Below, one piece after another: positions 3,053-34,202 of a DNA stretch of 64,000 bases. The DNA comes from Candidatus Omnitrophota bacterium. Lineage in GTDB: Bacteria; Omnitrophota; Gorgyraeia; Duberdicusellales; 4484-171. A program made the translations under genes and the position numbers. Each line of letters starts with the position of its first letter. Positions within the stretch are counted from its first letter, which is position 1. The stretch is taken from assembly GCA_014729775.1 (NCBI GenBank), contig WJJJ01000007.1, positions 30,302 to 94,301 of the forward strand, in the 5' to 3' direction. The notes beneath the pieces were generated by a model. It saw only the letters and a program-made list of their open reading frames with translations. It was not told the origin of the DNA and made no database searches.

Positions 3053-4771
3053 ATGGAAACGCAGCAGGGAACCAATATTATTGCGCCGTACGGAGAGACG
3101 CTCGTTGATCTGGTGGCTGCCGGCGGGGAGCGGGATGAATTGCTCGCCCGGTCGCGGGAAATGCCTTCATTGCAAGTGTCATTCCGGTCGCTTTGTGATC
3201 TGGAATTATTAGCTACTGGAGCTTTTTCGCCGGTCGATCGATTTATGAGCAGTAAAGATTATCTTCGCGTAAAAGAAGAAATGCGTCTGGCCGACGGCAC
3301 GTTCTTTCCCATCCCGGTCACGCTTCCCGCCGAAGATGTCAGCAGTTTCAAAACGGGCCGTCCGGTATGTATCCGCGGACCTCACAACGATGTCTTGGCC
3401 GTTTTGGAAGTAGAAGAAATCTATAAGTGGGACCGTGAGGACGAAGCCAGGAAGGTGTTCGGCACGACCGATTCCTACCATCCCCTCGTTGCCGAAATGG
3501 CAAGCTGGGGGAAGTACTATCTTTCGGGACCGATGAAAGTAGTGAACTTGCCGTGTCACTATGATTTTGCCGGGTTGCGCCGTACTCCCGCGCAGGTGAG
3601 AGCGTTTCTTTCGGAAATGGATGTGGCAAATGTCGTCGCATTTCAAACGAGAAATCCTCTGCACCGGGCGCACGAAGAACTTACCAAACGCGCCGCAGAG
3701 AAAATTAACGGGGCGCTCCTGCTTCATCCGGTCGTCGGGGCAACGCGTCCCGGAGATATCGATCACTTTATCCGAGTGCAGACGTACAAAGCGCTGGTGG
3801 AGAAGTATTACGACCCGCGGAAAACAGTGCTCAGCCTGCTGCCGCTGGCCATGCGGATGGCCGGTCCCCGGGAAGCGGTGTGGCACGCGATTATCCGCCG
3901 GAACTACGGAGCAAATCATTTTATCGTCGGCCGGGGGCATGCAGGCCCGGGAAAAGACTCTCATGGCCGCCCTTTTTACGGGCCTTACGACGCACAGGAG
4001 TTGATGCAGAAGGCAGAGCCCGAAATAGCGGTAAAGATGGTTGCCTTTCAGGAAATGGTGTATCTTCCGGACGAAGAACGTTTTGAAGAGCGGGCAAAAC
4101 TGGATCCTTCGGTTCGGATTCAGACCTTATCCGGCACGCAGGTAAGGAATGAATACCTGGCAAAAGGAAAATCTCTGCCGGAATGGTTTACCCGGCCGGA
4201 AGTTGCCCGGATTCTGGCGCACGCCTATCCTCCCTGTGAAGAAAAAGGGTTTTGTTTGTGGTTTACGGGCTGTCCGAGTGCGGGCAAGTCTACCATTGCT
4301 CAGATCGTGCAGGTACTGTTGAAAGAAAAAGGCAAGGAAGTGAGCATGCTTGACGGCGACGTGGTACGGACGCATCTTTCCAAGGGGCTCGGCTTTTCCC
4401 GCGAGGACCGGGATACCAATATCCTGAGGATTGGATTTGTGGCGTCGGAAATCGTCCGGCATCGCGGTACCGTGATCTGTGCCGCGGTCAGTCCGTACGA
4501 AGAAACCAGGAATCAGGTGCGGAGCATGGTCGGCGACGACCGGTTCGTGCTGGTGTTTGTCGATACTCCCCTCGAAGTCTGTGAACAGCGGGATATCAAA
4601 GGATTGTATGCCCAGGCCCGGTCGGGAAAGATTAAGGGGTTTACCGGAATCGATGATCCCTATGAACGTCCCGAAGCGCCGGATTTGCGGTTTACTACGA
4701 CCGAACAGAGTCCCGAGGAATGTGCGCGCGAAATTGTGCGGTATCTTGTCCAAAACGGATTTGTACGGTAA
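3053..4771 (+). CDS. sat: Bifunctional sulfate adenylyltransferase (ATP sulfurylase) / adenylyl-sulfate kinase (PAPS synthesis)
   Basis: The N-terminal ATP-sulfurylase motifs are QTRNPLHRAHE and GRGHAGPG. The C-terminal APS-kinase domain has the P-loop GCPSAGKST. The RBS is aaaggag 9 nt upstream of ATG 3053; the ORF tracker began at an upstream TTG (3026). Confidence 0.9.
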   Translation: METQQGTNIIAPYGETLVDLVAAGGERDELLARSREMPSLQVSFRSLCDLELLATGAFSPVDRFMSSKDYLRVKEEMRLADGTFFPIPVTLPAEDVSSFKTGRPVCIRGPHNDVLAVLEVEEIYKWDREDEARKVFGTTDSYHPLVAEMASWGKYYLSGPMKVVNLPCHYDFAGLRRTPAQVRAFLSEMDVANVVAFQTRNPLHRAHEELTKRAAEKINGALLLHPVVGATRPGDIDHFIRVQTYKALVEKYYDPRKTVLSLLPLAMRMAGPREAVWHAIIRRNYGANHFIVGRGHAGPGKDSHGRPFYGPYDAQELMQKAEPEIAVKMVAFQEMVYLPDEERFEERAKLDPSVRIQTLSGTQVRNEYLAKGKSLPEWFTRPEVARILAHAYPPCEEKGFCLWFTGCPSAGKSTIAQIVQVLLKEKGKEVSMLDGDVVRTHLSKGLGFSREDRDTNILRIGFVASEIVRHRGTVICAAVSPYEETRNQVRSMVGDDRFVLVFVDTPLEVCEQRDIKGLYAQARSGKIKGFTGIDDPYERPEAPDLRFTTTEQSPEECAREIVRYLVQNGFVR

Positions 4772-4811
4772 GAACAGAATGGCCAGGAGTTCGTGAAACC
4801 GGGAGCGGGAT

Positions 4812-7647
<2,836 letters not shown>

Positions 7648-7677: not shown

Positions 7678-9444
7678 ATGAGCGGTACAAAGATGTTGAC
7701 CGATGAGATTCCGCGGTATCCCGATACGCTTCCCGGAAGCGTGTGGGGGCTTACCACGTACTATAATCCGGCTCAATACCGGAACAAACTAGCGAATTAT
7801 CGAATATTTAGAGAACGGGTTAAACGGCAGGGATTATCTCTGATCACGGTGGAAATCGCGTTCGGCCGGCGGCCGTTCGAGTTAGAGAACAGTGACGCCG
7901 AAGTCCTGATTCAGCGGCGGACACGCGGAGTGTTGTGGCAAAAAGAACGAGCGTTGAACATCGCCCTGCAGGCTCTGCCGGATGAGTGCGATAAAATTAT
8001 CTGGCTAGACGCGGATGTGCTGTTTTATGATGACCGGTGGATCGTGCGGACGTGTCGCGCGTTGCAGGAATACGTCGTTGTCCAGCCGTTTTCCTTTTTC
8101 TTCCGGCTGCCGAAAGGGTTCGAGGATTTGGAGGAATATACGCGGAGATATCCGGATGCCTGCCGCCGGATTACCGCCGGATATGGGATCGGGTACGGGA
8201 TCGCGCATTTAGGACGGGAATTTTTACGGGAAGTTTCGGTGCGGGAAGCCGGAACGGTAGGTTTTGCCTGGGCGGCGCGGCGGAGCGTATTTTCGTCCGT
8301 TGGGTTTTATGACGCTTCTCCGGTCGGAGTTGCGGATGCCGTTATGGCCTATGGATTTTACGGTGCCCAGTGCCGGCCATACCAACGCTATTGGACGGAG
8401 TCAATGAGGAGAGACCAAGCCCTTTGGACGGAGGAGATTTATCGCCGGGTGCGGGGCAGTGTGTTTTGGGTCGATGGGCGGCTGGGACATCTTTGGCACG
8501 GGGATGTAGCTTCACGGATGTACGTACGCCGGCAATCGATTGAGAAGAAATGCCGGTTCAACCCGCGTACGGATATCAAAAAAGATGCGCAAGACTGCTG
8601 GATATGGGCGACGCGTAAAAAGAAACGGTTGCGGTTCTGGGTTCGTTGGTATTTCTGGATGAGGAACGAAGAATGCAACGCGGCGGTACGGTGTCTGCGC
8701 GGGGTTACGCAGATGGGTACGTATCTGGCGAGAGTTCTGTGGGCGGCGTTTCCCCGGAGGATAAAAACGAGGTATTGGCAGGCAAAGGAACGTGTACTTT
8801 TGCGCAGAGGGAAGTTCCCCGTGCAGACCGCCGGACTGGTGTCCGGACGGTATCGGTGTCTCTATGTGGGGGTTCCGACCAGCTCCGGTTCATCGTGGAC
8901 ACAGCGTCTAGCCGGAGATCTGGGGATGAAGTTTGAACTTTTTCCGGGCTGTTCGCGGTTTTGGGCCGTGACGGATATACGTGCGCGTGAATTCCACCGG
9001 TATTTCAAATTTTGTTTCGTCCGGAATCCGTGGGAACGGGCAGCTGCCGGGTATGTGGAAAATATTCGACCATTGCCGGGGGGGCCGTACGGCCGCGGCG
9101 GTGGCGGCCGGGCATTTCCGTTTTTCCGGCCGGGGATGAGCTTCGAGGAGTTCATCAGGGTCATCCACCGTATTCCTGATTATGCCGCTGAACGATGGTT
9201 CCGTTCAAATTACGCCTGTATTTGCGATCCGCAGGGAAGGAAGGTAGTCGATTTCGTGGGCCGGTATGAACACTGGGAACGGGATTGGGCAACGGTGTAT
9301 GCGCGGCTGGGGTTGGTGAATAGGTCTGCTCCCGGTAAGGACGTCCGGTGTCCGGAGTACCGGCACTATTATAATGAAACGACCAAAGCGTTAGTGGAAC
9401 AGCGCTATCGCCGGGATATCGAGTTGTTTGGGTATGAGTTTTGA
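7678..9444 (+). CDS. Two-domain protein: N-terminal GT-A-like putative glycosyltransferase fused to a C-terminal carbohydrate sulfotransferase (Sulfotransfer_2-like) domain
   Basis: N-terminal half: WLDADVLF (DxD-like) and GHLWHGD. Middle: a Trp/Arg-rich linker. C-terminal half: a 5'-PSB-like YVGVPTSSGSSW, a 3'-PB motif FVRNPWERAAAGY, and the C-terminal Y..D..LFGYEF typical of CHST-type sulfotransferases. Confidence 0.7.
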   Translation: MSGTKMLTDEIPRYPDTLPGSVWGLTTYYNPAQYRNKLANYRIFRERVKRQGLSLITVEIAFGRRPFELENSDAEVLIQRRTRGVLWQKERALNIALQALPDECDKIIWLDADVLFYDDRWIVRTCRALQEYVVVQPFSFFFRLPKGFEDLEEYTRRYPDACRRITAGYGIGYGIAHLGREFLREVSVREAGTVGFAWAARRSVFSSVGFYDASPVGVADAVMAYGFYGAQCRPYQRYWTESMRRDQALWTEEIYRRVRGSVFWVDGRLGHLWHGDVASRMYVRRQSIEKKCRFNPRTDIKKDAQDCWIWATRKKKRLRFWVRWYFWMRNEECNAAVRCLRGVTQMGTYLARVLWAAFPRRIKTRYWQAKERVLLRRGKFPVQTAGLVSGRYRCLYVGVPTSSGSSWTQRLAGDLGMKFELFPGCSRFWAVTDIRAREFHRYFKFCFVRNPWERAAAGYVENIRPLPGGPYGRGGGGRAFPFFRPGMSFEEFIRVIHRIPDYAAERWFRSNYACICDPQGRKVVDFVGRYEHWERDWATVYARLGLVNRSAPGKDVRCPEYRHYYNETTKALVEQRYRRDIELFGYEF

Positions 9445-9476
9445 CCCGCGGCAGGCGTGAGTTTCCGGGGAAACGA

Positions 9477-10364
9477 ATGAAGAAGATGAAAGTATCGGTA
9501 GTGATCCGCAACCGTAATGAGGCGAGGTATCTCGAGAAAATCTTATATGCACTTTCTTTGCAGCGTGTGCCCCCTGATGAAATCATCGTGGTTGATAATG
9601 CCTCCGAAGACAACAGTGCCGAAGTGGCCGCGCGCGCGCAGGCGAAGCTCGTTTCGATCGACACAAAAACGTTTACCTATGGCAGAGCGTTGAATAGGGG
9701 GATTCGGGAAGCGAGCGGCGAAATTTGTGTCGTGCTGAGCGCGCACACGCTGCCGGTGGGCAGGAATTTCATCGAAGAATGCCTAGTTCCGTTTGAAGAT
9801 GAACGCATTGCAGGGGTTCGCTGTGTTCACGGCGCCAAGCAGCGTGATCTGGAAGAATGGATTAGCCCGCAAGTGCTGCGTTCTCCCGTTGATCCTGAAA
9901 AAGTAATTGCGTACGGACCTGGATGCGGATACGCGATTCGCCGAAGCGTATGGCAGGAGATTCCGTTTGAGGAAGATCTGGAAATGATCGAGGACAAGGC
10001 CTGGGCTTGGGAAGTGCTGCGTAACGGGTATCATATCTATTCTGCGTGTCCCGCGGTGTACACTCATATTCGGCCGCGCCGAACCCTGGAAAAAATATGG
10101 CGAACGAATCAGGAAGGGCGGGCGGTATACCGGAGATTCGCCCGGCGGTTCCCGGTGCGATCCCCGATGCAAGCGATCGGGGGTATCGTTGCGGCCGTCT
10201 GCTGGCGGGCTCCCCGGGCGGCGGTGTCGGTACTCGTCACAACGATAGGGACACACATTTTTTCCTTGATGTTGCCGATTATAGCCAGGAAAAAAGCATC
10301 ACAGGGGTCGCGTCCGTTTTTCGAAGTGTCACGGAGCTGGAAGGGGAGCAAGAAGAATGAGTGA
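9477..10364 (+). CDS. Family 2 glycosyltransferase
   Basis: ATG at 9477 (the tracker began at TTG 9441). KVSVVIRNRNEARYLEKILYALSLQRVPPDEIIVVDNASEDNS is a canonical GT2 N-terminus. Confidence 0.8.
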   Translation: MKKMKVSVVIRNRNEARYLEKILYALSLQRVPPDEIIVVDNASEDNSAEVAARAQAKLVSIDTKTFTYGRALNRGIREASGEICVVLSAHTLPVGRNFIEECLVPFEDERIAGVRCVHGAKQRDLEEWISPQVLRSPVDPEKVIAYGPGCGYAIRRSVWQEIPFEEDLEMIEDKAWAWEVLRNGYHIYSACPAVYTHIRPRRTLEKIWRTNQEGRAVYRRFARRFPVRSPMQAIGGIVAAVCWRAPRAAVSVLVTTIGTHIFSLMLPIIARKKASQGSRPFFEVSRSWKGSKKNE

Positions 10365-11085
10365 CACGAAGTACCGGTGTGTCGCGATTATCCCGGCCAG
10401 AGGAGGATCGAAAGGGATCCCGCAGAAGAACCTTGTAAAATTACATCGCCGTCCGCTACTGGCCTACACGATCGAAGCCGCTCGACAGAGCGGTTTGTTC
10501 GAGAAGGTACTCGTGTCGACCGAGAATGAAAAAATCAGGCAAACGGCGCATCGCTACGGTGCGCAATCCATCTGTCGCCCGGCGAACCTTTCCGGCGACC
10601 GCGCCGCTACCGAGCCGGTGGTTCTCCATGCGCTGAACCGGCTGCGCAAAACCGAAAGATACCGGCCCGATGTCGTATTCCTTTTACAGGCGACGTCGCC
10701 GTTGCGGGACGAGGACGATATTCGCGCGGCGTATCGGCAGTTTTTGCGGCAGAAGGTCGATTCGCTCCTTTCCGTGGAAAAAAACACCGATTTCCTGTGG
10801 AAAGAGTCCCGCAGGGGACTGGCTCCGATCAATTATTCGTATTCTCGACGGCCTCGCCGACAGGATATGCCGGTGCAATTCAAGGAAAACGGGGCAATTT
10901 ACATCACGAAATACGAGATATGGATGCGGCACGGAAATCGGTTAGGCGGAAGGATCGGGTATTCGCTGATGGATCCGATGAACTCGATCGAGATCGATGT
11001 TCCGTTTGATGTCATTGTTGCCGCGGCAGCGGTGCGCCGCCGGGGAAAAATACGCAAGAAGAAAGGGGGGAGTCATGACAGATAA
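10357..11085 (+). CDS. neuA: Acylneuraminate (nonulosonate) cytidylyltransferase, CMP-sugar synthetase
   Basis: CVAIIPARGGSKGIPQKNLVKLHRRPLLAYTIEAARQS matches the CMP-NeuAc/CMP-Kdn synthetase family N-terminus. It overlaps the upstream GT2 by 8 nt. Confidence 0.85.
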   Translation: MSDTKYRCVAIIPARGGSKGIPQKNLVKLHRRPLLAYTIEAARQSGLFEKVLVSTENEKIRQTAHRYGAQSICRPANLSGDRAATEPVVLHALNRLRKTERYRPDVVFLLQATSPLRDEDDIRAAYRQFLRQKVDSLLSVEKNTDFLWKESRRGLAPINYSYSRRPRRQDMPVQFKENGAIYITKYEIWMRHGNRLGGRIGYSLMDPMNSIEIDVPFDVIVAAAAVRRRGKIRKKKGGSHDR

Positions 11086-11947: not shown

Positions 11948-11967
11948 TGCAAGCGAAGCGAGGCGGG

Positions 11968-12471
11968 ATGATGGAGCAGGAAAAAAAGAAAATTCGGTTC
12001 TCCGAGGTCAAACTGTTGGTCCTGGATTTCGACGGGGTGCTTACCGATAATAATGTCTATGTATCCGAGGACGGAAAAGAATCGGTGTGTTGTTCCCGGA
12101 GCGACGGTCTGGGAATAGAAATGGTGCAGAGCCGCGGGATACCCGTGGTGGTTTTATCCAAGGAAAAGAACAAGGTCGTAAAGGCCCGGTGCCGGAAGTT
12201 ACGCGTCCGGGTCACACAGGGGATCGACGAAAAACTCAGTGAACTAAAGCGAATTGCCGCGAACGCGAATGTTTCTCCCCGGCAAGTTTGTTATTTGGGT
12301 AACGACGTTAATGACCTGGAATGCGTAGAGTTTGCGGGGGCTGGCTGTGCGGTAAATGACGCCCATCCCGCGTTGCGCAATGCGGCCGATTATGTGACCA
12401 GGAACACCGGCGGGCACGGGGCTGTCAGAGAGATTTGTGAGTGTATCCTTGAAAGAGCAGATGAGCGGTAA
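11968..12471 (+). CDS. HAD-superfamily subfamily IIIA phosphatase (KdsC / Kdn-9-phosphate phosphatase family)
   Basis: VKLLVLDFDGVLTDNNVY...LGNDVNDLECVEFAGAGCAVNDA is the YrbI/KdsC family signature. The RBS gaggcggg precedes ATG 11968; the tracker began at GTG 11947. Confidence 0.8.
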   Translation: MMEQEKKKIRFSEVKLLVLDFDGVLTDNNVYVSEDGKESVCCSRSDGLGIEMVQSRGIPVVVLSKEKNKVVKARCRKLRVRVTQGIDEKLSELKRIAANANVSPRQVCYLGNDVNDLECVEFAGAGCAVNDAHPALRNAADYVTRNTGGHGAVREICECILERADER

Positions 12472-24835: not shown

Positions 24836-24922
24836 CTCAATTAAAGGATACCATACCCTGCCCCCCGATGTCAATAAAATCGCCGATGGCGAAAAACCAT
24901 TGAAAATAAAGGAGAATACGTT

Positions 24923-26761
24923 ATGATGCGCCGAGTTTTCCAGCGCTCCGTGCTTACTCTGATCGTGGTTGTGGTGACAATGGGGACGTTTCTTTTTATT
25001 TATAATACCTATATGTTGGATCATTCTCTCTTTAATCTGAAGGTTTCGCTCAAACATCTGGCTACCGTGGAAAATCCCAGGGAAATGGAGGAAATCCGGC
25101 AAATCCTGGACGTTGTATTGGTCCAGGAAATTGCCCGGGATTCGTCCGACTTTTTAGCGGCGGCAAAACTGGAATTTTCCGGTCAGATTGCGGGGCGGAT
25201 GAAGCAATATCAGCAGATTCAGGATATCCGGTTTCTCTTGGGGGATATCGTGGAACAACGGGAGGAGCGACGCAATCCTTTTTTTGCTCTGCTGGACAGC
25301 ATTTTGATGAAACTCTTCCCCCATGTGCGGCAGGACCAGCCGCAGAAGATACGCGCAATGATCAGCGAAATGGAAAAGAAAATTCCCCTTTACGACGGAA
25401 TTAAGCTGCAGGCGCATTTAATCCGTCTGGCACAGATGAATATGCGTCTTCGGGAGTGGCCTGTCGCATTGGAGTTGTTGCAGCGGGCGGCTTCAGCCGG
25501 GCCGGAAAGTAAGGAGGGCCGTATCGCGAAGCTATATGTGGGAATCGTATATAAATTTACCGGAGAGTATGAGCGTGCCCGGAAAGTATTCAGCGAGCTT
25601 CGTTCGGTGTTAGAGAAAGATCTGAAAAAATACGCAATATATCAGGAAGCCCAAATCTTGTATGCAGAAGGGCGAAAGGGACAGGCCTTGCAGAAGTTAG
25701 AAGAGTTCTTTGATGATTCGCCCGGAGAAGAATTCCATCAATTCTCGCAGTTCCGGGCGGCATACGAGTATCTATACACCATACACGACCACCAGAAGGC
25801 GTATCAGTCGTTTCAAAAACTGCATGAATATGCACCCCAAAGCAAGTATGACGAATATGCGGTTACCTATCTCTATCCCCGGAATGCGGAGCCGTATGTA
25901 GAAGAAGGAGCAATTTTGTTGGATGAAGGGTATAATCTGGTGCGGTTGGCACATGAAAAAGAGGCACGCGAACGATATCAGGGTGCATTGAACCTGTTCC
26001 ACCAGGCGGTAAAAATTTGTCCGCCGGAAACCAATGATACCGTGGTGTCGATTATCGCCCGCAATTATCGGGAAACCGGATTCAAACTGGTCGAACAAGG
26101 ATATTTGTCTCAACAGGCGAACCAGAAAGCGGAAGCGACGTTGTTTTTTTCCGATGCGATCGAGAAATTTGATCTTGCAACGCAATTCTTCGACCGCGAA
26201 GCGTTAGCATACAGCGGGAAAGGACTGACGTTATTGTTTCTCGGGAAGCCGCAGGAAGCGCTGGATGCCGCGCGGGAAGCCGTCCGTCTCAATCCCGAGA
26301 ATGAAGAAACACTGGCTCATTTGGGGTATGTGTATTATCGGGTGGGAATGCTTGACGAAGCGATCGATGTGTATCGAAAATCGATGTTGGTATTACGAGA
26401 TTCTCCGCTATTGCATTATAATCTGGGGACAATGTTGGTTAAAAAAGGCAACCTTGTGGGAGCGATCGAAAATTTCAAACAGGCGATTGATGCTGATCCG
26501 AAATATTCGTACGCATATAATAACCTAGGATACATTTTGTGGGTAAAGGGCGCCTATCAGGAGGCGCAGACAAATTTGGAGCGAGCCGTGAGTTTGAGCC
26601 CCGATTATGTGGATGCCAGGTATAATCTCGGAGTCTTGTTTTTTACCATCGGAAAGTACGAACAGGCCCAGGAGCAGTTCCAAGTGATCAACCGTTTGCA
26701 TCCGGGGTTCAAAAAAAGCCAACAGTTTCTGAGAGCGATTGAAAAGAGAGCTGCACAATAA
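24923..26761 (+). CDS. TPR-repeat protein with N-terminal membrane anchor
   Basis: RBS aaggag 7 nt before ATG. An N-terminal TM (LTLIVVVVTMGTFLFIY) is followed by multiple TPR-like repeats (YNLGTMLVKKGNLVGAIENFKQAIDADPKYSYAYNNLGYI...). Confidence 0.8.
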   Translation: MMRRVFQRSVLTLIVVVVTMGTFLFIYNTYMLDHSLFNLKVSLKHLATVENPREMEEIRQILDVVLVQEIARDSSDFLAAAKLEFSGQIAGRMKQYQQIQDIRFLLGDIVEQREERRNPFFALLDSILMKLFPHVRQDQPQKIRAMISEMEKKIPLYDGIKLQAHLIRLAQMNMRLREWPVALELLQRAASAGPESKEGRIAKLYVGIVYKFTGEYERARKVFSELRSVLEKDLKKYAIYQEAQILYAEGRKGQALQKLEEFFDDSPGEEFHQFSQFRAAYEYLYTIHDHQKAYQSFQKLHEYAPQSKYDEYAVTYLYPRNAEPYVEEGAILLDEGYNLVRLAHEKEARERYQGALNLFHQAVKICPPETNDTVVSIIARNYRETGFKLVEQGYLSQQANQKAEATLFFSDAIEKFDLATQFFDREALAYSGKGLTLLFLGKPQEALDAAREAVRLNPENEETLAHLGYVYYRVGMLDEAIDVYRKSMLVLRDSPLLHYNLGTMLVKKGNLVGAIENFKQAIDADPKYSYAYNNLGYILWVKGAYQEAQTNLERAVSLSPDYVDARYNLGVLFFTIGKYEQAQEQFQVINRLHPGFKKSQQFLRAIEKRAAQ

Positions 26762-26762
26762 A

Positions 26763-26791
26763 TTGACAGCAGCATGAAAATATACTAAACT
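26763..26791 (+). promoter_or_regulatory. Putative sigma70-type promoter (TTGACA-17-TAAACT) giving a near-leaderless PilZ mRNA
   Basis: TTGACA at 26763-26768 and TAAACT at 26786-26791 with a 17-nt spacer. The predicted TSS is ~3-4 nt before ATG 26802. Confidence 0.45.
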
Positions 26792-26801
26792 TATCGTTGA
26801 G

Positions 26802-27377
26802 ATGCTGAAATCATTCAAGAAACATTTCTTCCGCAAGAAAGGCCGTGACCGGAGAAAATATGTCCGGTTGCGTGCGCATCATTTGCTGAAGTATAAAATT
26901 CTTTCTCCCCAAGAACATCTGACCTTTGTCCGCGATATCAGCGGCGGCGGACTCCTCTTTTTCTCGAGAGAGGATATTCCTGTGGGGAGTGTAGTGGAAC
27001 TTGCCGTTAATTTTCCCGCATCTCCCTTGCCGATTGAAGGGGTAGCCAAGGTGATCCGGACCCGGCATCTTAAAAAGATGGGCGGCTACGAGATCGCAGT
27101 CGAATTTCTCGAGCTGGACGAAGAAAACCGGGAACGGATTCAACGGCAAATAGCGTGTGTATATGAAAAAAAAGAACAAAGAAAGGGGGAGCGAATGGGC
27201 AGAGTAGCGAAAATATTCCTGGGACTCGCGATTGTCGGCGCGCTTTTCGGGACGGCAACGCGATTCTTTGATGTGAGTGTCCCGGTTGCCCCGCTCAGTT
27301 GGGTTATGTTGACCAATATGTTTTTGCTGTTCTCTATCGCGGTCACTTTGTTGGCAATTGCTCGGAAGATCAAATAG
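26802..27377 (+). CDS. PilZ-domain c-di-GMP receptor with C-terminal two-TM anchor
   Basis: Canonical PilZ motifs RKYVRLR (RxxxR) and DISGGG (DxSxGG), followed by two hydrophobic helices at the C-terminus. Confidence 0.8.
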   Translation: MLKSFKKHFFRKKGRDRRKYVRLRAHHLLKYKILSPQEHLTFVRDISGGGLLFFSREDIPVGSVVELAVNFPASPLPIEGVAKVIRTRHLKKMGGYEIAVEFLELDEENRERIQRQIACVYEKKEQRKGERMGRVAKIFLGLAIVGALFGTATRFFDVSVPVAPLSWVMLTNMFLLFSIAVTLLAIARKIK

Positions 27378-27418
27378 GTTCTTTTGAGGATATACGGGGC
27401 AGACGGAATTTTATTCGT

Positions 27419-28747
27419 ATGGGCAGGTGGATTACCACAGGAATATGCATGGTTGCGTGTGCTGTCCTTCCCGCAGCGGGATGGGGGGAAGTGACGAGGG
27501 GAGACCTTATCGACGGATATCTTAAATATTATCAGCTGGAAGAAAAAGAACGGGAAGAAAAGGAACGGCAGGAAGAGCTCCGGCGGCAAAAGGAAGAGGC
27601 TTTGATGCGGGAGCGGGAAGCCCGGCGGGATAAAAGCGAGCAACGTGCGAGAAAAATGAAAAAAGTGCTTGAGAGAGTAAAAGAGGATCTTTTGTTTGTC
27701 GCGGAACTCGAGAGTATTTATAGCGATAACGTATTTAAAACCAGCGAAGACGAAGAATCAGATTTCGTCACTTCTCTCACCCTGGGATTGAGCTACGAAC
27801 CAGAAATTGCATGGAGGAAGGGGCATACTTCGGTAAAATTCGATCTGGAAGGCGGTCCGAACATCACCATTACGGATAATGACGAGCTGAACGCGAACCG
27901 GTTCCTTGCCGCCGGTGCGGTCCAGCATGTCCGGGGGAAATACGGTGTCGGTATTGAAGGAGGCGCGGAACGGGATTTCTCTACGGCGAGCGATTTTACC
28001 CTTACGGGAGAAAAAAAGCTCGTGGAATTCTGGCGGTATCGGTACGGAGTGGAGCTGTTCGCCGACTGGGCATATCTCCCTTCCTCGCTTCAGTACACGC
28101 ACAAAACAACCGAACACGACGGAGAGTTTTCTGCGGCGGATTTAGACGAGGACGTCATTGAATTGACGACGAAAGTGAACGTTTTCCCCAAGACCGGAAT
28201 TAAATTTGACTATCAATATGGTTCTGACGAATATCCGAACCGCGGAAATAAAGACGGTACGTATCATTCGTTTCAACTCGGGCTGTCCGGAAAGATTTCG
28301 CCGAAGATCAAAGGGGATATCCTTGGAGGCATCAAGCAGAGAGAAATCGATGACGGCAGCGATGTCGAAGAAACTACGACGACGGTGGACCTTGTGTATG
28401 ATATCTCCGAACATCTGAGCGCCGCCTTCGAAGCAAGCCGGGATGTCTCCGCGACGGCGGTCATCGGAGAATCTTGGAGCAAAGACTGGGAGATCATTCT
28501 GGGGCTGGAATACCGGCCGCCGTTCAACCGAAGGTTAACCATGTTCGCCGGAGGGGAATATAAGAGTTCAGAGTATTCTTCCGCCCGGGAAGACGAATAT
28601 CTTGAGCTGTCTTTGCGGTCACGGCTCGCGTTGAATCAATGGCTTTCCTGTGAAGGTGCATATACGTTCGAAGACAGGACCTCGAACACTGCCCTGGCCG
28701 AATACACGCAAAACGAAATTACGCTGTCACTCACCGCGGAGTTTTAA
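27419..28747 (+). CDS. Putative outer-membrane beta-barrel protein with N-terminal charged coiled-coil region
   Basis: Signal peptide (MGRWITTGICMVACAVLPAAG), a K/E/R-rich low-complexity stretch, then alternating amphipathic beta-strand pattern. The C-terminus ...ITLSLTAEF ends in Phe, the OMP signature. Confidence 0.6.
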   Translation: MGRWITTGICMVACAVLPAAGWGEVTRGDLIDGYLKYYQLEEKEREEKERQEELRRQKEEALMREREARRDKSEQRARKMKKVLERVKEDLLFVAELESIYSDNVFKTSEDEESDFVTSLTLGLSYEPEIAWRKGHTSVKFDLEGGPNITITDNDELNANRFLAAGAVQHVRGKYGVGIEGGAERDFSTASDFTLTGEKKLVEFWRYRYGVELFADWAYLPSSLQYTHKTTEHDGEFSAADLDEDVIELTTKVNVFPKTGIKFDYQYGSDEYPNRGNKDGTYHSFQLGLSGKISPKIKGDILGGIKQREIDDGSDVEETTTTVDLVYDISEHLSAAFEASRDVSATAVIGESWSKDWEIILGLEYRPPFNRRLTMFAGGEYKSSEYSSAREDEYLELSLRSRLALNQWLSCEGAYTFEDRTSNTALAEYTQNEITLSLTAEF

Positions 28748-30088
28748 ATGAAGATGCGAACAAAAATCATAGGTGTGCTTCTCGTTTGCTTCCCGCTGGC
28801 TGTTTCCGCACAACAGGAGGAGGAGAACATTGCCGCAGGGGATATTCTCCATATTACCGTATACGGGGAGCCGGGGCTTGATCAAAAGGTCCAGGTGTCT
28901 GGTACGGGGGATGTCGAATTCGTTCCTCTCGGACAGGTTCCCGTGGCCGGGCTCTCTCCGGTCGGGGCGGGAGAGAAAATCGAACGGGAACTGAAAAATG
29001 AGTTTTATTTGGATGCGGAAGTAAGCGTGATCCGGAACCGGTCCGCCGGGGAGTCGACGCAGGAGCCTCTTCCTTATTTTTCCGGTGAGGATTCCGGAAT
29101 TCCCTCTGCGGAAGACGATTTGTTTTACCGGGTTGGTCCGTACGATACAATTGAGATATCCGTTTACGGAGAGCCGGATTTAAGTAAAACCGTCAAAGTT
29201 TCCGAGGTAGGAAATATCCGTTTTCCGCTGCTGGGAGACGTGCAAGTCGAAGGACTGACTGCTGAAGAAATCGCCAGAAAAATTGAAGAATTGCTTGAGG
29301 ACGAATATTTAGTGAATCCACAGGTGAGTGTGATGATCGAGGAATACGGAAAAGTCTATGTGTTCGGCGCGGTGAATCAGCCGGGGGAATACGAGTTAAA
29401 AGGGCCTCTTACGCTCGTTGATATCCTCGTGCTAGCCGGCGGGGCCCAAGAAAACGCCAATCTTTCAAAAGTAAAAGTGGTGCGAAGGACCGGAGGCGAC
29501 CGGGGGTACGTGGTGGACGTAGACGATGTGGGCAACCGTTTCTACCTGAAACCCTTAGATAAGGTGATTGTGGAAGAATACGGGGAGATATATATCGTTG
29601 GCGCCGTCGAGAATCCTGGAGCTTATAATCTCGAAACGAGCGACTTGACGCCGTTGGATGCAATCATATTTCTGGCCGGAGGAGCTGCGGAAAATGCGAA
29701 CCTTACCGCGGTGACCGTGATCCGGTCGGCCGAAGATGGGAAAGAAGAGATCGTCGTTGACACTTCCCGGCCCGATCAGGAGTTTTATCTTCAGGAAGGC
29801 GACCGGGTGGTGGTAACGCTGTACGAGGATGTTTCGGTGTTTGGTGAAGTGCGGGAACCGGGTAATTACCCGTACAAAAAGGGGATAACGGTGATTGATG
29901 CCATTAGCCAGGCTGGCGGATTTACCGAGGTCGCGAGTAAAAACGGCGTACGAGTTATTCGGCAGCAGGGAGGGGAAAAGAAAATTATCAAAGTGCCTGT
30001 CGGATATATTTTAAAAACCGGAGATAAAGAGAGAGACATAGAGCTCCAGGAGGGCGATGCGGTAGTCGTCCCGGAATCGTGGTTTTGA
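28748..30088 (+). CDS. wza: Polysaccharide export protein (Wza/GumB/EpsA-like; Poly_export + SLBB domains)
   Basis: Signal peptide and repeated SLBB motifs (VYVFGAVNQPGEYELKGPLTLVDILVLAGG; IYIVGAVENPGAYNL...LDAIIFLAGG). Confidence 0.85.
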   Translation: MKMRTKIIGVLLVCFPLAVSAQQEEENIAAGDILHITVYGEPGLDQKVQVSGTGDVEFVPLGQVPVAGLSPVGAGEKIERELKNEFYLDAEVSVIRNRSAGESTQEPLPYFSGEDSGIPSAEDDLFYRVGPYDTIEISVYGEPDLSKTVKVSEVGNIRFPLLGDVQVEGLTAEEIARKIEELLEDEYLVNPQVSVMIEEYGKVYVFGAVNQPGEYELKGPLTLVDILVLAGGAQENANLSKVKVVRRTGGDRGYVVDVDDVGNRFYLKPLDKVIVEEYGEIYIVGAVENPGAYNLETSDLTPLDAIIFLAGGAAENANLTAVTVIRSAEDGKEEIVVDTSRPDQEFYLQEGDRVVVTLYEDVSVFGEVREPGNYPYKKGITVIDAISQAGGFTEVASKNGVRVIRQQGGEKKIIKVPVGYILKTGDKERDIELQEGDAVVVPESWF

Positions 30089-30094
30089 GGAACG

Positions 30095-31933
30095 ATGATA
30101 CCTTCACCGGAAGTTAAAGAACTGACGCTCAAGGATTACGTCGACATATTGCTGCGGCGGGTGTGGATACTTATGCTTTTTTTGGTCGTTATCCCCTCGA
30201 TCGTCGCAATCCGCGATCTGCGCATGGAGAAAGTGTATGAAGTAGAGACGAAGATCCTGTTAAAAAGCGAGATGCCGCAGATTTCCGGTAAAGAAGGGTT
30301 ATTATACCGTCAGGGAATGCCTGCGAAAGAGGACCAGGTTAATCTGCTTCAATCCCGGGCGCTTGCCGAGCGAGTGATCAAAACCTTGAATTTATCAAGC
30401 GAAGAAGAGTTTTCCGGAGCTTCCGATCCGGCGAGGTCTTTGCTTGAGAGGGTGACCGTAGAACAGGAGGACCAGCGCCGAAGCAATGTGGTATGGCTGC
30501 GGGTGGAGGGGAGTGATCCTCTGAAAATTACTAATATCGCCAATACCTGGGCCCAAGAGTTCATCGAACTGGATGTCGAACAAAGGATTTCTACGGCAAA
30601 ATACGGGGTAGCTTGGCTGAAGGAGCAGCTCGACCAAACACTCCAGAATCTTCAGGCGGCCGAAAAGAATCTCAATGCGTTTATTAAGAAAAACAAGATC
30701 GTGGCCATCCCTGACGTGGGAGAGCAGAAAGAGACTTTGATCGAACGGTTGAAAGAGCAAAAAGTTGATCTCGAAAAAGAATTGTTCGAGATGTCGAAAA
30801 AATATAAACTGAATCATCCCGATATGCTCGCCCTTCGTTCTCAGCTGGAGGCCGTCGAGAAATCTTTGGCAAAAGAAAAAAAGGCGGTGTTCGAATTGCA
30901 GGAGAAATCGCTCGAATACAGGATCCTTAAGCGGAATGTCGCTGCGCATAAATCGTTGTATGACGATTTTCTAAGGCGCATCAATGAACTTGAAGTGACC
31001 AAAGAGATGGTCAATTCGAACATCATGGTCGTTGAAGAAGCGCATATCCCTTCGGTTCCGATCAGGCCCCGGTTTGCCAGCGACATGGTCAAGGCGATTC
31101 TCATAAGTTTGGCGCTTGGCGCCGGGCTGTGCTATTTTCTCGAATACACCGATACTTCGCTCAAGACTTCGGAAGACGTCGAATTCTACACCCGGCTGCC
31201 ATTTCTCGGCTATGTACCTTCGGCAAAAAAAGGAGGGAAACGGGGAGATCCCAGTGTGCTCATCTCTTCTGCCGAGCCGTATTCTCAGGTGGCCGAAGCA
31301 TTAAGGAATCTGCGCGTATCTTTGATTTTTTCCTTTCCGGAGGATCATCCTTTGCGGTCGGTCATGGTGACGAGTGCCGTTCCCCGAGAAGGGAAAAGCT
31401 TTATCGCCGCCAATCTTGCGGTGATTTTTGCTCAGGCGAACGAAGAAACACTCTTGATCGAGACCGACATGCGCAAGGGGAAGCTTTCAAAGATATTTGA
31501 GATTGACGCAAAACACGGGCTCAGCAGTGTGTTAGCCGGACTTTGCCCCCTTGAAGATGCGGTGTCGCCTACTTCCATTCCCCATCTTTCCGTGATGCTT
31601 GCCGGGCCGTACACTCCGAATCCCGCGGAATTGTTGAGCTCGCATAAACTTGTCGAAATTATGGAAGAAGCAAAAAAGAAATATAAGCGAATCGTAGTGG
31701 ACGCGCCGCCGGTATTGGGGGTTGCCGATACGGTATTGGTCGGCGATAAATGCGACGGTGTTGTGTTCGTGGTGAAAACCGCCAGTACTTCCCTGAAGCT
31801 TGTAGAAGAGGCAAAAAAAATGATCACCGATAAAATGAAGGTGATCGGGGCGACATTGAATAATGTCGAAATGGAACGCGACCGGTATTACTACTACCAC
31901 TACTATTCTTATGCACCCGAGAAAAAAGGTTGA
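30095..31933 (+). CDS. wzc: Polysaccharide co-polymerase / BY-kinase (Wzc/EpsB-like tyrosine autokinase)
   Basis: N-terminal TM plus periplasmic coiled-coil (Wzz/GNVR-like), a second TM, a cytoplasmic P-loop ATPase (VTSAVPREGKSFIAANLA; VVDAPPVLGVADT), and the terminal Tyr cluster RDRYYYYHYYSY. Confidence 0.9.
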   Translation: MIPSPEVKELTLKDYVDILLRRVWILMLFLVVIPSIVAIRDLRMEKVYEVETKILLKSEMPQISGKEGLLYRQGMPAKEDQVNLLQSRALAERVIKTLNLSSEEEFSGASDPARSLLERVTVEQEDQRRSNVVWLRVEGSDPLKITNIANTWAQEFIELDVEQRISTAKYGVAWLKEQLDQTLQNLQAAEKNLNAFIKKNKIVAIPDVGEQKETLIERLKEQKVDLEKELFEMSKKYKLNHPDMLALRSQLEAVEKSLAKEKKAVFELQEKSLEYRILKRNVAAHKSLYDDFLRRINELEVTKEMVNSNIMVVEEAHIPSVPIRPRFASDMVKAILISLALGAGLCYFLEYTDTSLKTSEDVEFYTRLPFLGYVPSAKKGGKRGDPSVLISSAEPYSQVAEALRNLRVSLIFSFPEDHPLRSVMVTSAVPREGKSFIAANLAVIFAQANEETLLIETDMRKGKLSKIFEIDAKHGLSSVLAGLCPLEDAVSPTSIPHLSVMLAGPYTPNPAELLSSHKLVEIMEEAKKKYKRIVVDAPPVLGVADTVLVGDKCDGVVFVVKTASTSLKLVEEAKKMITDKMKVIGATLNNVEMERDRYYYYHYYSYAPEKKG

Positions 31934-33231
31934 TGAGAAGAAACGGATCAGAGATTTTCTTTGAGGGTGTGATTTGGTTCCTTATCTTTTTCCCGCCTCT
32001 TTTCTCCGGGGGGCTTCCCTTTCTGCCCAGGGTAATCCTTTTCACCGTAATTTTTAGTTTAGTCCCGCTCGTATTGTTGCGCGCCGCAGTGCGGTCTGAG
32101 TGGAGTGTTTGTTTTCCCCGAGAAATTTGGATATTGGGGGGTTTTTTTGCGGTGTTGGTGTTCCAGCTCATTCCTTTACCTGAGGGAATGCTTGGATTTT
32201 TTTCTCCGGCAACGGCGGCTATTTACCGGACCTATGCAGCCGAAGTTTCCCCGCGGGTATTCAGCATAAGCATTTATCCGTATGTGACTCTTCTTGAACT
32301 GGTGTATTGGGCCGGGTATGCGGGGCTTTTCCTGGTGGCGGTCAATTTGTTCAATACGCGCAGACGTATGATGCGTGTGGTGTACGTGATGATTCTTTGG
32401 GCGTTTGTGCTCGGAGCGTACGGAGTGATTGAAAAGTATATCCTTGGGTGGAGTGCGGGGAGATTAACGTTCAGCACATTCGGGAATAAGAATCACTTTG
32501 CCGGGTACATGGTGCTTATCTCGCCATTGGCATTTTCATTTGCATTTTACGAAAAAGATCGGGCAAAAAAATTGGTGCTTGGGTTTCTGGGCGGACTGTT
32601 ATCCCTGATGGTATTTTTATCGTTTTCCCGGGCAGGGACGATCGCGCTTCTTGGCGCACTGGGTTTTATGGGGCTGTTGGTATGGCAGCAGTCCAAAACA
32701 GCCAAAGCAGTGGGCGGGGTGGTGGCTGCGGTTTTGCTGGTCGCGGGGTTGCTGTCGCTGGCCGGTATCGATCAATTTATTCAGCGTTTTTCGTCCCTTC
32801 CTTCCGGGTTATACACCCGAACGATGCTGTTCCAGGATGCCTTAGAAATTATCGGAGACTTTCCGCTTTTCGGAACGGGTGAAGGAACTTTCCGCTATAT
32901 TTATCCGATGTATAAGGATATTATTACTACGAGGTTTACTTACCATCTTCTGAATGATCATCTGGAATTGCTCTTGGAAACGGGTCTCGCGGGTGCCTGT
33001 GCGTATTTTGGGTTTTTGAGTGCGGTATTCGTCCGAATCGTCCGGAAGCTGTCCGAACGGAAAGATCCTTTTGCGAAGTATCTCGTGATCGGCGGCCTGA
33101 GCGGAACCGCGGGGCTTCTGTTCCATAGTTTTTTTGAATTCAATTTTTTTGTGCCGGCGGTGGCCTGTATGTTTTGGCTGATTCTGGGGATTACTTATAA
33201 AGGAGTGCATACGAGGTTCGCGAGGCAATGA
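31933..33231 (+). CDS. O-antigen ligase / polymerase (Wzy_C) family integral membrane protein (second copy)
   Basis: A >=10-TM protein with the Wzy_C-like loop (LSFSRAGTIALLGALGF...LFGTGEGTF). The TGATG junction overlaps the wzc stop. Confidence 0.75.
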   Translation: MRRNGSEIFFEGVIWFLIFFPPLFSGGLPFLPRVILFTVIFSLVPLVLLRAAVRSEWSVCFPREIWILGGFFAVLVFQLIPLPEGMLGFFSPATAAIYRTYAAEVSPRVFSISIYPYVTLLELVYWAGYAGLFLVAVNLFNTRRRMMRVVYVMILWAFVLGAYGVIEKYILGWSAGRLTFSTFGNKNHFAGYMVLISPLAFSFAFYEKDRAKKLVLGFLGGLLSLMVFLSFSRAGTIALLGALGFMGLLVWQQSKTAKAVGGVVAAVLLVAGLLSLAGIDQFIQRFSSLPSGLYTRTMLFQDALEIIGDFPLFGTGEGTFRYIYPMYKDIITTRFTYHLLNDHLELLLETGLAGACAYFGFLSAVFVRIVRKLSERKDPFAKYLVIGGLSGTAGLLFHSFFEFNFFVPAVACMFWLILGITYKGVHTRFARQ

Positions 33232-34202
33232 AGTGGAACGCGCAGCATAGGTGTGGGATCTGGGCTGCAGCCGCGTTTCTGTGTGCGGTATCCGCGGTGA
33301 CTTTTCTTGTTTCCTCTTACCGTGCCGCAGCGCTGTATGCACGGATCGACCGGGCGACCGTGCCGCAATTGGAACGGGAAAGGGTGCGGTACTATGCGAA
33401 ACTGGGGCAGTTGTTCGTCAGGGCAACCACGCTTCAGCCGTTGAATGCCGACCTGTTGGCCCGGCGTGCCGATTTTATTCTCCGTGCTGGGGTTTGGCTG
33501 AATGATCAGCGGCCGGAGGCCCGGCGTCTGCTGAGACGTGCCGTGGAGGAAAATCCCACCAATTTTGTGTATCATCTTAAATTGGGGATGCTGGCCGAAG
33601 AACAGGGCCGTTATGAGGCAGCCGAACGTTTTTACCGGCAGGCGATGTCGTTACACCCAACCGATTATCAGGGGTATTTTCGTCAAAGCGTATTGGCACT
33701 TAAACAGGGACGGCAGGAGGCTGCCTTTCGCAATTTTTTTACGGCGATGTATTGCGTCGGCGGCAGGCGAAAAAAACTGTTTATGATGTTTGATGAGCTC
33801 TCTGCGGCAAATCCGGAGAGGTCACGGTTATCGTTTCGGGAGGAAATCCGCCGCCGGTGGATAGAGTACCGGGTTGTGCCGCTCAAGGTGGCATATCATT
33901 TTGGCGCACACGGGTTTCCGTCCATCCGGCACTACGAGCGACCGGACCCGCAGTATCGCTATCTTTCGTTTGATGTGGATATCCAGGCGCAGGGAAGCGA
34001 AGCTGTCCACCGGATTACTTTTGAGAATCAGGATTCATTTGAACGGGAATTCTTGAGCCGGGATGACCGCTGGTACGAAGTCCGGCTCGATGAATTCCCG
34101 GCACGAACACCATTGAGTCAAAATGCGATTAAAACGTATCCCCCCGGGCTTATCGAAGAACTCGTTTTTGAAATCCGGTTTGAATATAAACTGCTAAAGT
34201 AG
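33228..34202 (+). CDS. TPR-like repeat protein, probably exported
   Basis: ATGA overlap with the upstream Wzy-like gene. N-terminal hydrophobic segment (WAAAAFLCAVSAVTFLV) and TPR-like helical repeats (YHLKLGMLAEEQGRYEAAERFYRQAMSLHP...). Confidence 0.6.
   Translation: MKWNAQHRCGIWAAAAFLCAVSAVTFLVSSYRAAALYARIDRATVPQLERERVRYYAKLGQLFVRATTLQPLNADLLARRADFILRAGVWLNDQRPEARRLLRRAVEENPTNFVYHLKLGMLAEEQGRYEAAERFYRQAMSLHPTDYQGYFRQSVLALKQGRQEAAFRNFFTAMYCVGGRRKKLFMMFDELSAANPERSRLSFREEIRRRWIEYRVVPLKVAYHFGAHGFPSIRHYERPDPQYRYLSFDVDIQAQGSEAVHRITFENQDSFEREFLSRDDRWYEVRLDEFPARTPLSQNAIKTYPPGLIEELVFEIRFEYKLLK

Follow-up and report, generated by a model that had tools for sequence, protein, structure and literature searches.

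A 33-kb Candidatus Omnitrophota locus predicted to assemble and export an acidic, possibly sulfated heteropolysaccharide

We analysed a stretch of 64,000 nucleotides (hereafter the window, whose coordinates are used throughout) from contig WJJJ01000007.1 of a Candidatus Omnitrophota bacterium (assembly GCA_014729775.1). The window contains a glycan-synthesis and export locus of roughly 33 kb (1180-34202, + strand) with 30 consecutive genes for glycan synthesis, export or regulation. The full best explanation for this locus, which we consider probable though well short of certain, is that it assembles and exports a lipid-linked, repeat-unit acidic heteropolysaccharide. Sulfation of the polymer is plausible, with the chances roughly even, because the synthesis of 3'-phosphoadenosine 5'-phosphosulfate (PAPS) is embedded in the locus and the clade of its PAPS synthase is linked to glycan genes elsewhere. 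It is unproven because the residues for PAPS binding and activation are missing from the sole sulfotransferase (ST) domain. An initial annotation had described a sulfated fuco-sialo-polysaccharide machine under the control of cyclic di-GMP (c-di-GMP). What stands of this description is a locus for an acidic polymer with its own PAPS supply, whereas sulfation is unproven, the local cyclase is doubtful and the sugars are best guesses.

From the family memberships, motifs, folds and synteny described below we would propose the following order of steps. A PglC-like phosphoglycosyl transferase would prime polyprenyl phosphate and the unit would then be extended by seven glycosyltransferases (GTs) of families GT2 and GT4, by the GT-A domain of a fusion protein and possibly by a GT-B protein that we refer to as p489. 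Gmd and an Fcl-like reductase would supply a GDP-6-deoxyhexose (most likely GDP-L-fucose), and a NeuB-family synthase, a KdsC-type phosphatase and a CMP-transferase would supply a CMP-nonulosonate, most likely that of deaminoneuraminic acid (CMP-Kdn). A methyltransferase would decorate the repeat unit and PAPS would be produced locally by the bifunctional enzyme Sat/CysC. The best candidate for flipping the unit is a HepA/PglK-like ABC exporter, Wzx being absent, and a Wzy_C protein would polymerise it. Export of the polymer would run through a Wzc-like polysaccharide co-polymerase/bacterial tyrosine kinase (PCP/BY-kinase), a class-3 outer-membrane polysaccharide export (OPX) protein and the adjacent beta-barrel, with tetratricopeptide repeat (TPR) proteins as accessories and with c-di-GMP input via a membrane-anchored PilZ protein.

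All family calls were made with Pfam and NCBIfam models and the scores were compared with the model cutoffs. The sat/cysC gene (3053-4771, +) encodes a bifunctional ATP sulfurylase/adenosine 5'-phosphosulfate (APS) kinase with PUA_2, ATP-sulfurylase and APS_kinase domains. The fused enzyme named in the initial annotation is borne out by the equivalog model NF004040, which it passes with 809 bits against a cutoff of 669, and the motifs QTRNPLHRAH, GCPSAGKST (P-loop), DGDVVR and KGFTG are kept. The gene follows the ABC exporter gene after 19 nt and precedes gmd by 40 nt. We scanned one genome per species for relatives of the enzyme and obtained 80 loci, 68 of them with close relatives (56-66% identity). 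At residues 293-298 the window protein reads GRGHAG, a variant of the GRDHAG motif that is present in 62 of these 68 loci. The best relatives were found in Binatia, Acidiferrales, Syntrophobacteraceae and above all Chloroflexota, and none of the 80 belonged to Omnitrophota.

At 12 of the 68 loci Sat/CysC adjoins homologs of the CMP-transferase, the haloacid dehalogenase (HAD) phosphatase and NeuB of the window, and L049 additionally has Gmd (64%) and Fcl (60%) homologs. Pfam searches on three loci (L049, L005 and L020) placed Sat/CysC amid stand-alone Sulfotransfer_1/_3 proteins, Capsule_synth proteins, GT2/GT4 enzymes and methyltransferases. The Lys/Arg of the 5'-phosphosulfate-binding (PSB) loop is kept in the sulfotransferases inspected in L005 and L049 and in one beside the p489 homolog of L082. 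Chloroflexota metagenome-assembled genomes (MAGs) combine Sat/CysC next to the CMP-transferase/HAD/NeuB genes with intact sulfotransferases and Capsule_synth (KpsC/S-like) proteins (L005, L006, L013, L028, L031, L037, L039, L042, L049, L064, L066 and L067), so that the linkage of PAPS and nonulosonate genes is a recurrent one. We found no description of this linkage in the searchable literature. As the close relatives sit by the nonulosonate cassette and by intact sulfotransferases, Sat/CysC appears to be glycan-linked, and the clade would typically act as PAPS supplier for glycan sulfation. The combination of PAPS and nonulosonate genes occurs in Chloroflexota MAGs and is therefore not unique to the Omnitrophota organism. 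The initial annotation had proposed to look for co-occurrence with wza/wzc in relatives. The nonulosonate genes, the sulfotransferases and, in L049, Gmd and Fcl do recur, but tblastn with the window OPX and Wzc proteins found none in the loci of the Sat/CysC relatives (10-kb flanks; no OPX/PCP/PilZ family screen was made). It had also named neighbouring cysH or cysIJ genes as the sign of a purely assimilatory Sat/CysC, and the 64-kb window yielded neither cysH nor a sulfite reductase gene nor any other gene of the assimilatory route.

The ST domain forms part of a 588-aa fusion protein (7678-9444, +). In a Candidatus Omnitrophica MAG the protein is recorded, at 100% identity, as 'hypothetical protein GF333_01600' on a contig of 170,813 bp. 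We aligned and analysed its two domains separately. Residues 1 to ~330 form a GT-A domain, for which there is no Pfam model but for which we found a GT-A fold, with a DxD motif at D111/D113. Residues ~372-588 match Sulfotransfer_2 (PF03567) with 44.2 bits (cutoff 22, E 3.4e-11) over profile positions 74-252 only. The nearest relatives of the ST domain are stand-alone sulfotransferases of 200-270 aa with 28-40% identity. Of the carbohydrate sulfotransferase-GT-A fusion claimed in the initial annotation, the Sulfotransfer_2 family and the GT-A fold are thus confirmed, while the canonical catalytic site is not. The PSB loop reads VPTSSGSS and has a T where 120 homologs (IPKVAxSS) show K in 113 cases, R in three and a truncation gap in four. 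In the 3'-phosphate-binding (3'-PB) motif RNPWERAAAGY the Arg residues are retained, and an A replaces the Ser that is found in 120/120 homologs (RNPWDRLVSCY). Furthermore a Trp stands in place of a His conserved in 108/120 homologs and an Asn in place of a Gln conserved in 118/120.

Searched exhaustively with HMMER, a set of 1.84 billion representatives contained no closer relative of the ST domain. We inspected 67 of the top hits with a regular expression and by reading; all full-length ones have the Lys and 66/67 have the Ser. In total 187 homologs were fetched, seven of them truncated N-terminally at the PSB position, and the window ST domain alone lacks the PAPS-loop Lys/Arg among about 190 relatives. 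A weak PDB match between the ST-domain profile and the sulfotransferase 3rnl allowed us to label the two motifs; the labels lean also on the general features of PAPS sulfotransferases. For the fusion protein, the family of its N-domain and the p489 family the PDB yielded no usable match, either by sequence or by profile. Neither Pfam nor phmmer with three intact sulfotransferases from related loci detected another sulfotransferase in the window, and phmmer with the sulfotransferases and Capsule_synth proteins of related loci detected no hidden homolog in any window open reading frame (ORF).

The N-terminal domain (7678-8757) belongs to a large family without a Pfam model (P0002-P0120), in which the DxD and H..WHG motifs are invariant. 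Elsewhere members of this family are duplicated or fused to GT2, GT8, Glyco_transf_64, methyltransferase or Sulfotransfer_3-like domains, and the four Sulfotransfer_3-type fusions that we inspected show the PSB loop GAPFSGAT without Lys/Arg. These GAPFSGAT fusions suggest that non-catalytic ST-like modules recur with the GT-A family, so that degenerate modules of this kind may be a repeated feature of it. In other metagenomic proteins (P0363, P0371, P0369 and P0364) an intact Sulfotransfer_2 domain is joined to further domains, among them GT2, GT4, a Wzt-like ABC ATPase and Sulfotransfer_3. The fusion of a glycosyltransferase with a sulfotransferase is thus a recurrent architecture.

Two explanations of the sulfur genes have to be weighed against each other. 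The polymer may truly be a sulfated extracellular polysaccharide (EPS) with fucose and nonulosonate, made either by a fused ST domain that is active despite its substitutions or by a sulfotransferase elsewhere in the genome that uses the in-locus PAPS. The position of the PAPS synthase only 19 nt from the ABC exporter and 40 nt from gmd, the repeated linkage of its clade to sulfotransferases and glycan genes, and the status of PAPS and sulfotransferase genes as a hallmark in capsule loci (PMC11641403) are consistent with this explanation. The rest of the ST domain is also well conserved (FVRNP, R83), with 39% identity to the closest homolog in a full-length alignment. On the other hand the domain has neither the PSB Lys/Arg, which all full-length homologs inspected possess, nor the 3'-PB Ser, the window holds no second sulfotransferase by Pfam or phmmer, and neither CysQ nor a sulfate transporter is encoded nearby. 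We therefore regard a truly sulfated polymer as possible, at somewhat less than an even chance.

The alternative is an unsulfated polymer, in which case the ST domain would either be a decayed relic or bind its ligand without catalysis, and Sat/CysC would serve general sulfur assimilation or other acceptors. This agrees with the loss of four conserved ST residues, the PSB Lys and the 3'-PB Ser among them, with the GT-A family fusions whose Sulfotransfer_3-like domains also lack the PSB Arg, and with the GRGHAG variant in Sat; in a one-strand window adjacency is moreover weaker evidence of co-function. However, cysH, sir and cysIJ are all missing from the window and the closest Sat/CysC relatives occur mostly in glycan and sulfotransferase contexts rather than in assimilatory ones. 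The lack of Omnitrophota among the 80 best relatives further suggests that the gene arrived with glycan genes and not as part of core metabolism. We consider an unsulfated polymer of this kind rather unlikely.

For the GDP-sugar we found Gmd, a GDP-mannose 4,6-dehydratase (4812-5858, +; PF16363, 454 bits, full length), and an Fcl-like GDP-4-keto-6-deoxymannose epimerase/reductase of the short-chain dehydrogenase type (5855-6808, +; Epimerase family). The GDP-L-fucose synthesis named in the initial annotation is well supported for Gmd, but the best NCBIfam match of the Fcl-like protein, the GDP-L-fucose synthase model NF047922 (E 1.4e-89), reached 300 bits against a cutoff of 500. The product of the two enzymes would be a GDP-6-deoxyhexose, most likely GDP-L-fucose.

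The trio of neuA-like, neuB-like and phosphatase genes was correctly recognised in the initial annotation. The CMP-nonulosonate synthetase (10357-11085, +) is a CTP_transf_3 protein (PF02348, 90.9 bits) whose best NCBIfam match, PseF, is below cutoff. The NeuB-family nonulosonate(-9-P) synthase (11075-11947, +; PF03102, 267 bits) has no SAF domain; its match stops at profile position 277/329, the NeuB and PseI equivalogs are below cutoff and PseI, SpsE and NeuB are its PDB matches. The KdsC/YrbI-type C0 HAD phosphatase (11947-12471, +), a candidate Kdn-9-P phosphatase, passes the YrbI subfamily model TIGR01670 (120 bits, cutoff 107) and falls below the KDN-9-P phosphatase equivalog (98.7, cutoff 180). 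Its PDB matches include KdsC and the B. thetaiotaomicron structures 3e81/3e8m, and its DFDG and GNDVND motifs (DxD, GDxxxD) are intact. The locus Pfam tables list no UDP-GlcNAc 2-epimerase (Epimerase_2) and no precursor genes for N-acetylmannosamine (ManNAc), pseudaminic acid (Pse) or legionaminic acid (Leg). Because the phosphatase is present, such precursor genes were not detected and GDP-mannose metabolism is already encoded in the locus, the nonulosonate is most likely CMP-Kdn derived from mannose-6-phosphate. The same set of NeuB-family synthase, KdsC-type phosphatase and CMP-transferase makes up the CMP-Kdn pathway of B. thetaiotaomicron (BT1713-BT1715) and Prymnesium parvum (PMC6200933), where it follows from the presence of the phosphatase that the substrate is a phosphorylated hexose, for instance mannose-6-phosphate. 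In contrast to that pathway the three window proteins score below the equivalog cutoffs and the GT-B protein p489 is added as a partner.

The 481-aa p489 protein (12461-13903, +; GF333_01625, on the same Omnitrophica contig as GF333_01600) has no Pfam match in the window. Its family extends across Chloroflexota, Bacteroidota, Gemmatimonadota and Desulfobacterota with 50-64% identity. The homolog directly follows CTP_transf_3(+HAD) and NeuB at 80 metagenomic and two genomic loci (L081, L082, L084-L163), and it is often followed in turn by a Sulfotransfer_3 gene. Weak Pfam matches of the relatives were to Glyphos_transf (TagF-like) in 20/50 and to Epimerase_2 in 17/50, and the nearest folds are NeuC-type hydrolysing UDP-GlcNAc 2-epimerases. 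The sole named relatives are BFO_1060/Tanf_01245, the genetically supported, TagB/GT-B-like Pse/Leg transferases of Tannerella forsythia (PMC5420450). We favour a soluble CMP-nonulosonate transferase of the GT-B type; a NeuC-like precursor enzyme is a possible alternative and would alter the predicted sugar.

The seven GT2/GT4 transferases and the methyltransferase of the initial annotation were all recovered by Pfam, as four GT2 and three GT4 enzymes and one methyltransferase, each on the + strand. Three of the GT2 proteins (PF00535) are encoded at 6805-7647, 9441-10364 and 13878-14900. The fourth (20356-21408; PF00535, 90 bits) has C-terminal transmembrane (TM) segments at residues 249-320, and this architecture, resembling GtrB and polyprenyl-phosphate glycosyltransferases, suggests periplasmic glycosylation with a lipid-linked monosaccharide. 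The GT4 proteins lie at 15481-16812 (PF00534, start codon uncertain), 16749-17963 (PF00534/PF13439) and 19367-20359 (PF13439/PF13692), and the SAM-dependent methyltransferase (Methyltransf_23/11) at 14888-15667.

PglC-like priming was likewise upheld. The small monotopic phosphoglycosyl transferase (21405-22031, +; 208 aa; PF02397, 190 bits) has the motif DELPQ...GDMSFVGPRP including the DE dyad, and its score against TIGR03025 is below cutoff because it consists of the catalytic domain only. Only 3 nt downstream lies a gene for a geranylgeranyl-reductase-family flavoprotein (22035-23219, +; TIGR02032, 170 bits, cutoff 159), which might saturate the polyprenol carrier. The Wzx-type assembly of the initial annotation was not recovered: no ORF of the window matched a Wzx/MOP flippase (Polysacc_synt/MOP), and the 489-aa ORF of p489, lacking a Pfam match, encodes a soluble protein and so hides no membrane flippase. 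The sole candidate flippase in place of Wzx is the ABC exporter (1180-3033, +; ABC_membrane and ABC_tran), which is predicted to have six TM segments and a nucleotide-binding domain and is HepA/MsbA/PglK-like. Its six hydrophobic segments were evident and its NCBIfam scores were 462 bits for the HepA family, 391 for MsbA and 222 for PglK, all below cutoff.

Both of the proteins announced as Wzy-like polymerases have 10-11 TM segments and exceed the Pfam cutoff for Wzy_C, although this family also covers ligases and O-oligosaccharyltransferases. The first (17976-19370, +; PF04932, 47.9 bits; 11 predicted TM) could be the repeat-unit polymerase or a ligase and weakly matches TIGR04370. The second (31930-33231, +; PF04932, 65.6 bits; 10 TM) is IctB/O-antigen-ligase-like, with TIGR00947 below cutoff. 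The glycan could thus also end up attached to lipid A-core or to proteins (O-antigen, S-layer or O-glycan), one Wzy_C protein acting as WaaL-type ligase or PglL-type O-oligosaccharyltransferase and the ABC exporter being PglK-like. Two Wzy_C proteins from a family that spans Wzy, WaaL and PglL/PilO, a small PglC-like transferase next to a PglK-like exporter, and p489 relatives (BFO_1060/Tanf_01245) that add nonulosonates to a protein O-glycan (PMC5420450) would all fit such a fate. Set against this is the complete set of PCP-2a/BY-kinase, OPX and barrel, which is typical of the secretion of high-molecular-weight capsule or EPS. Attached and secreted fates are not mutually exclusive, and we consider an attached glycan unlikely.

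The secreted heteropolysaccharide that we prefer would leave the cell through the products of the export block. This begins with a TPR protein (24923-26761, +) with an N-terminal TM/signal segment and weak PrsT/PilW/PgaA-type matches in addition to the TPR families; another TPR protein (33228-34202, +; TPR families) is the last of the locus. The outer-membrane beta-barrel of the initial annotation corresponds to a BBP2_2/EpsL-like protein (27449-28747, +, start uncertain as the ORF opens at 27299; PF10082, 50 bits) with weak TIGR03016/TIGR03014 matches. The OPX gene (28748-30088, +) begins on the nucleotide after the end of the barrel gene. The OPX protein has two Poly_export and three SLBB domains (Pfam; TIGR03027, 206 bits, cutoff 180) and, with its 446 residues, stops within the last SLBB domain. 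The initial annotation had called it Wza. As it lacks the C-terminal Wza_C helix it belongs to class 3, defined as Poly_export/SLBB-only proteins that work with a partner beta-barrel (PMC9603273), and it is predicted to form a translocon with the adjacent barrel. Wzc was named correctly: the PCP-2a/BY-kinase (30095-31933, +; Wzz, GNVR, AAA_31; TIGR01007, 159 bits, cutoff 108) combines Wzz and GNVR with a P-loop (Walker A GKS) and a Tyr-rich C-terminal tail (YYYYHYYSY). OPX, barrel and TPR proteins also matched PEP-CTERM-associated NCBIfam models. A PEP-CTERM/exosortase system was rejected, as there is no exosortase in the window and most of these matches are below cutoff.

Of the two PilZ receptors in the initial annotation one lies in the locus (26802-27377, +; PF07238). 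It has two C-terminal TM helices and both RxxxR (R18-K-Y-V-R22) and D45-I-S-G-G-G50, and this membrane-anchored protein, whose motifs are canonical, probably provides the c-di-GMP input. The other is probably a 673-aa protein encoded at 40630-42651, 6.4 kb beyond the locus, in whose N-terminal PilZ domain RxxxR is kept and DIGRGG replaces DxSxxG; its 5' neighbour is a 788-aa TPR/DUF3857/transglutaminase protein (37903-40269). The announced GGDEF protein exists as a membrane HAMP-GGDEF protein (23194-24498, +), but its signature is GGDDF. The sequence HEGGDDF aligns to RVGGEEF of solved cyclases, with a His for the usual Arg two residues upstream, and the Pfam match covers only profile positions 5-94 of 161.

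The ORF limits of the island first described (3053-34202) are exact: 3053 is the ATG of sat/cysC and 34202 the stop of the last TPR gene. The locus, though, most likely starts at 1180 with the ABC exporter. Packing is tight, with short spacers and 4-nt overlaps at ten junctions. A 424-nt gap (24499-24922) however divides the locus into a biosynthesis block (1180-24498) and an export block (24923-34202). Every long ORF chain of the window is on the + strand and the GC skew is positive throughout, so the co-directionality of the locus is nothing special, and it is function, not strand, that delimits it. The genes on either side are unrelated or housekeeping, with HTH_17 and DUF192 upstream. Downstream follow a tRNA-binding protein, UPF0047, RNase T, AsnC, an aminotransferase, pyrimidine genes, a V/A-ATPase, tRNA synthetases and Trk. 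From 22 kb onward (regulatory/export block, 22000-32000) the GC content drops from ~0.55 to ~0.48; together with the lack of Omnitrophota among the 80 best Sat/CysC relatives this hints at different origins of the biosynthesis and export blocks. In a promoter/terminator scan of 22-36 kb promoter-like sites were no commoner than in shuffled sequence and nothing informative was detected within the 424-nt gap. Rfam detected no riboswitch, for c-di-GMP or otherwise, its sole match being one tRNA. Directly 3' of the V/A-type ATPase A and B subunit genes we noted two overlapping ORFs on opposite strands at 50719-53031 (+ 50866-52929, 687 aa; - 50719-53031, 770 aa), neither with a Pfam match.

Besides the ST substitutions and the missing Wzx, several points weigh against the synthesis and export of an acidic heteropolysaccharide as outlined above. 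The locus comes from the MAG of an uncultured bacterium. In a wholly co-directional window the short spacers are all that places sat/cysC in the operon, and the window encodes neither CysQ nor a sulfate permease. The ABC exporter, which scores below every equivalog cutoff, is no more than a candidate flippase. The Fcl-like protein, NeuB, the phosphatase and the CMP-transferase all score below equivalog cutoffs, so that the sugar identities are not fixed, and the NeuC-type enzymes nearest in fold to p489 would favour a ManNAc-type over a Kdn-type route. Finally, a local source of c-di-GMP is doubtful because of the GGDDF signature.

We then compared the locus with known systems. The initial annotation had held the combination of sulfate, fucose and nonulosonate in one bacterial polysaccharide to be nearly unique, which is contradicted by precedents in Vibrio, Cobetia, Synechocystis and granular sludge and by Sat/CysC with the nonulosonate cassette in Chloroflexota MAGs. 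The capsule loci of Vibrio sp. KMM 8419 and Cobetia marina KMM 1449 contain PAPS genes and sulfotransferases and their products are chemically proven to be sulfated (PMC11641403, PMC11766843); this gene pair has been described as a hallmark of sulfated polysaccharide synthesis (PMC11641403). As in those loci, PAPS genes are embedded here with a sulfotransferase (in this case degenerate), nucleotide-sugar genes and glycosyltransferases. They use CysN/D/C and Kps-type ABC export, Cobetia having CysQ and a sulfate permease as well, whereas the Omnitrophota locus has a fused Sat/CysC and a Wzy/PCP/class-3 OPX system, no CysQ or permease in the window and an ST domain without the PAPS-binding residues.

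The synechan xss cluster of Synechocystis PCC 6803 is a Wzx/Wzy system for a sulfated EPS (PMC8205485), and Sulfotransfer_2/_3/_1 genes are common in cyanobacterial EPS loci (PMC8205485). It shares with the window locus a repeat-unit pathway, a Wzy-like protein and PCP-2a/OPX export, and has eight glycosyltransferases, sulfotransferases and dedicated regulators. Only xss has Wzx, two intact sulfotransferases, an OPX encoded elsewhere and two-component regulation rather than PilZ/GGDEF, whereas PAPS, putative GDP-fucose and nonulosonate genes, all lacking in the xss cluster, are present in the Omnitrophota locus. For export the closest likeness is to the EPS, BPS and MASC translocons of Myxococcus xanthus, in which a Poly_export/SLBB-only OPX likewise occurs beside a barrel and a PCP/BY-kinase (PMC9603273, PMC9601211, PMC12819527). 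By family the barrel here is BBP2_2/EpsL-like, while theirs is of the 18-stranded PgaA-like Wzp type, and the Omnitrophota locus differs in its two Poly_export domains, the fusion of kinase and PCP and the lack of Wzx.

The loci of Chloroflexota and other MAGs (L005, L006, L049, L066, L082 and others) share the fused Sat/CysC (58-66% identity), the CMP-transferase(+HAD)/NeuB/p489 genes, GT2/GT4 enzymes and methyltransferases, and in L049 also Gmd (64%) and Fcl (60%). Only they have stand-alone Sulfotransfer_1/_3 proteins with intact PSB Lys/Arg and Capsule_synth (KpsC/S-like) proteins. The window locus stands out by its phylum, by having Sat/CysC as a fusion, by a GT-A/ST fusion whose ST domain is degenerate, by the lack of Wzx and by the PilZ input. 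A literature search brought up no relevant work on exopolysaccharide, sialic acid or sulfate adenylyltransferase in Omnitrophota.

The same EPS preparations from wastewater granular sludge yielded measurements of both Kdn and sulfated glycoconjugates, and sulfotransferase genes were not found in the dominant genera (PMC10483923). A more far-reaching idea, which we put forward as speculative and improbable at present, is that the four-gene cassette CMP-transferase(+HAD)/NeuB/p489 together with Sat/CysC and sulfotransferases marks a widespread, undescribed pathway for a sulfated Kdn-type polymer, with p489 as a new family (CMP-nonulosonate transferase or NeuC-like precursor enzyme) and the GT-A/ST fusion as a glycosyltransferase in which the degenerate ST domain has turned into a regulatory module that binds PAP(S) or sulfoglycans. 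Such polymers may be surface polymers of environmental bacteria in Chloroflexota, Omnitrophota and other uncultured lineages. If true, the Kdn and the sulfated glycoconjugates of granular-sludge EPS would have a genetic explanation.

The linkage of Sat/CysC, nonulosonate, p489 and sulfotransferase genes would more generally offer marker genes for the 'sialylated and sulfated' granular-sludge polymers, which have no assigned genes (PMC10483923). The degenerate ST domain serves as a caution that domain-level annotation alone would over-predict sulfation. Omnitrophota is a phylum known almost only from metagenomes, and if the polymer is made as predicted the locus would be the first genetic blueprint of an acidic fucose/Kdn-type surface polymer, possibly sulfated, in this phylum.

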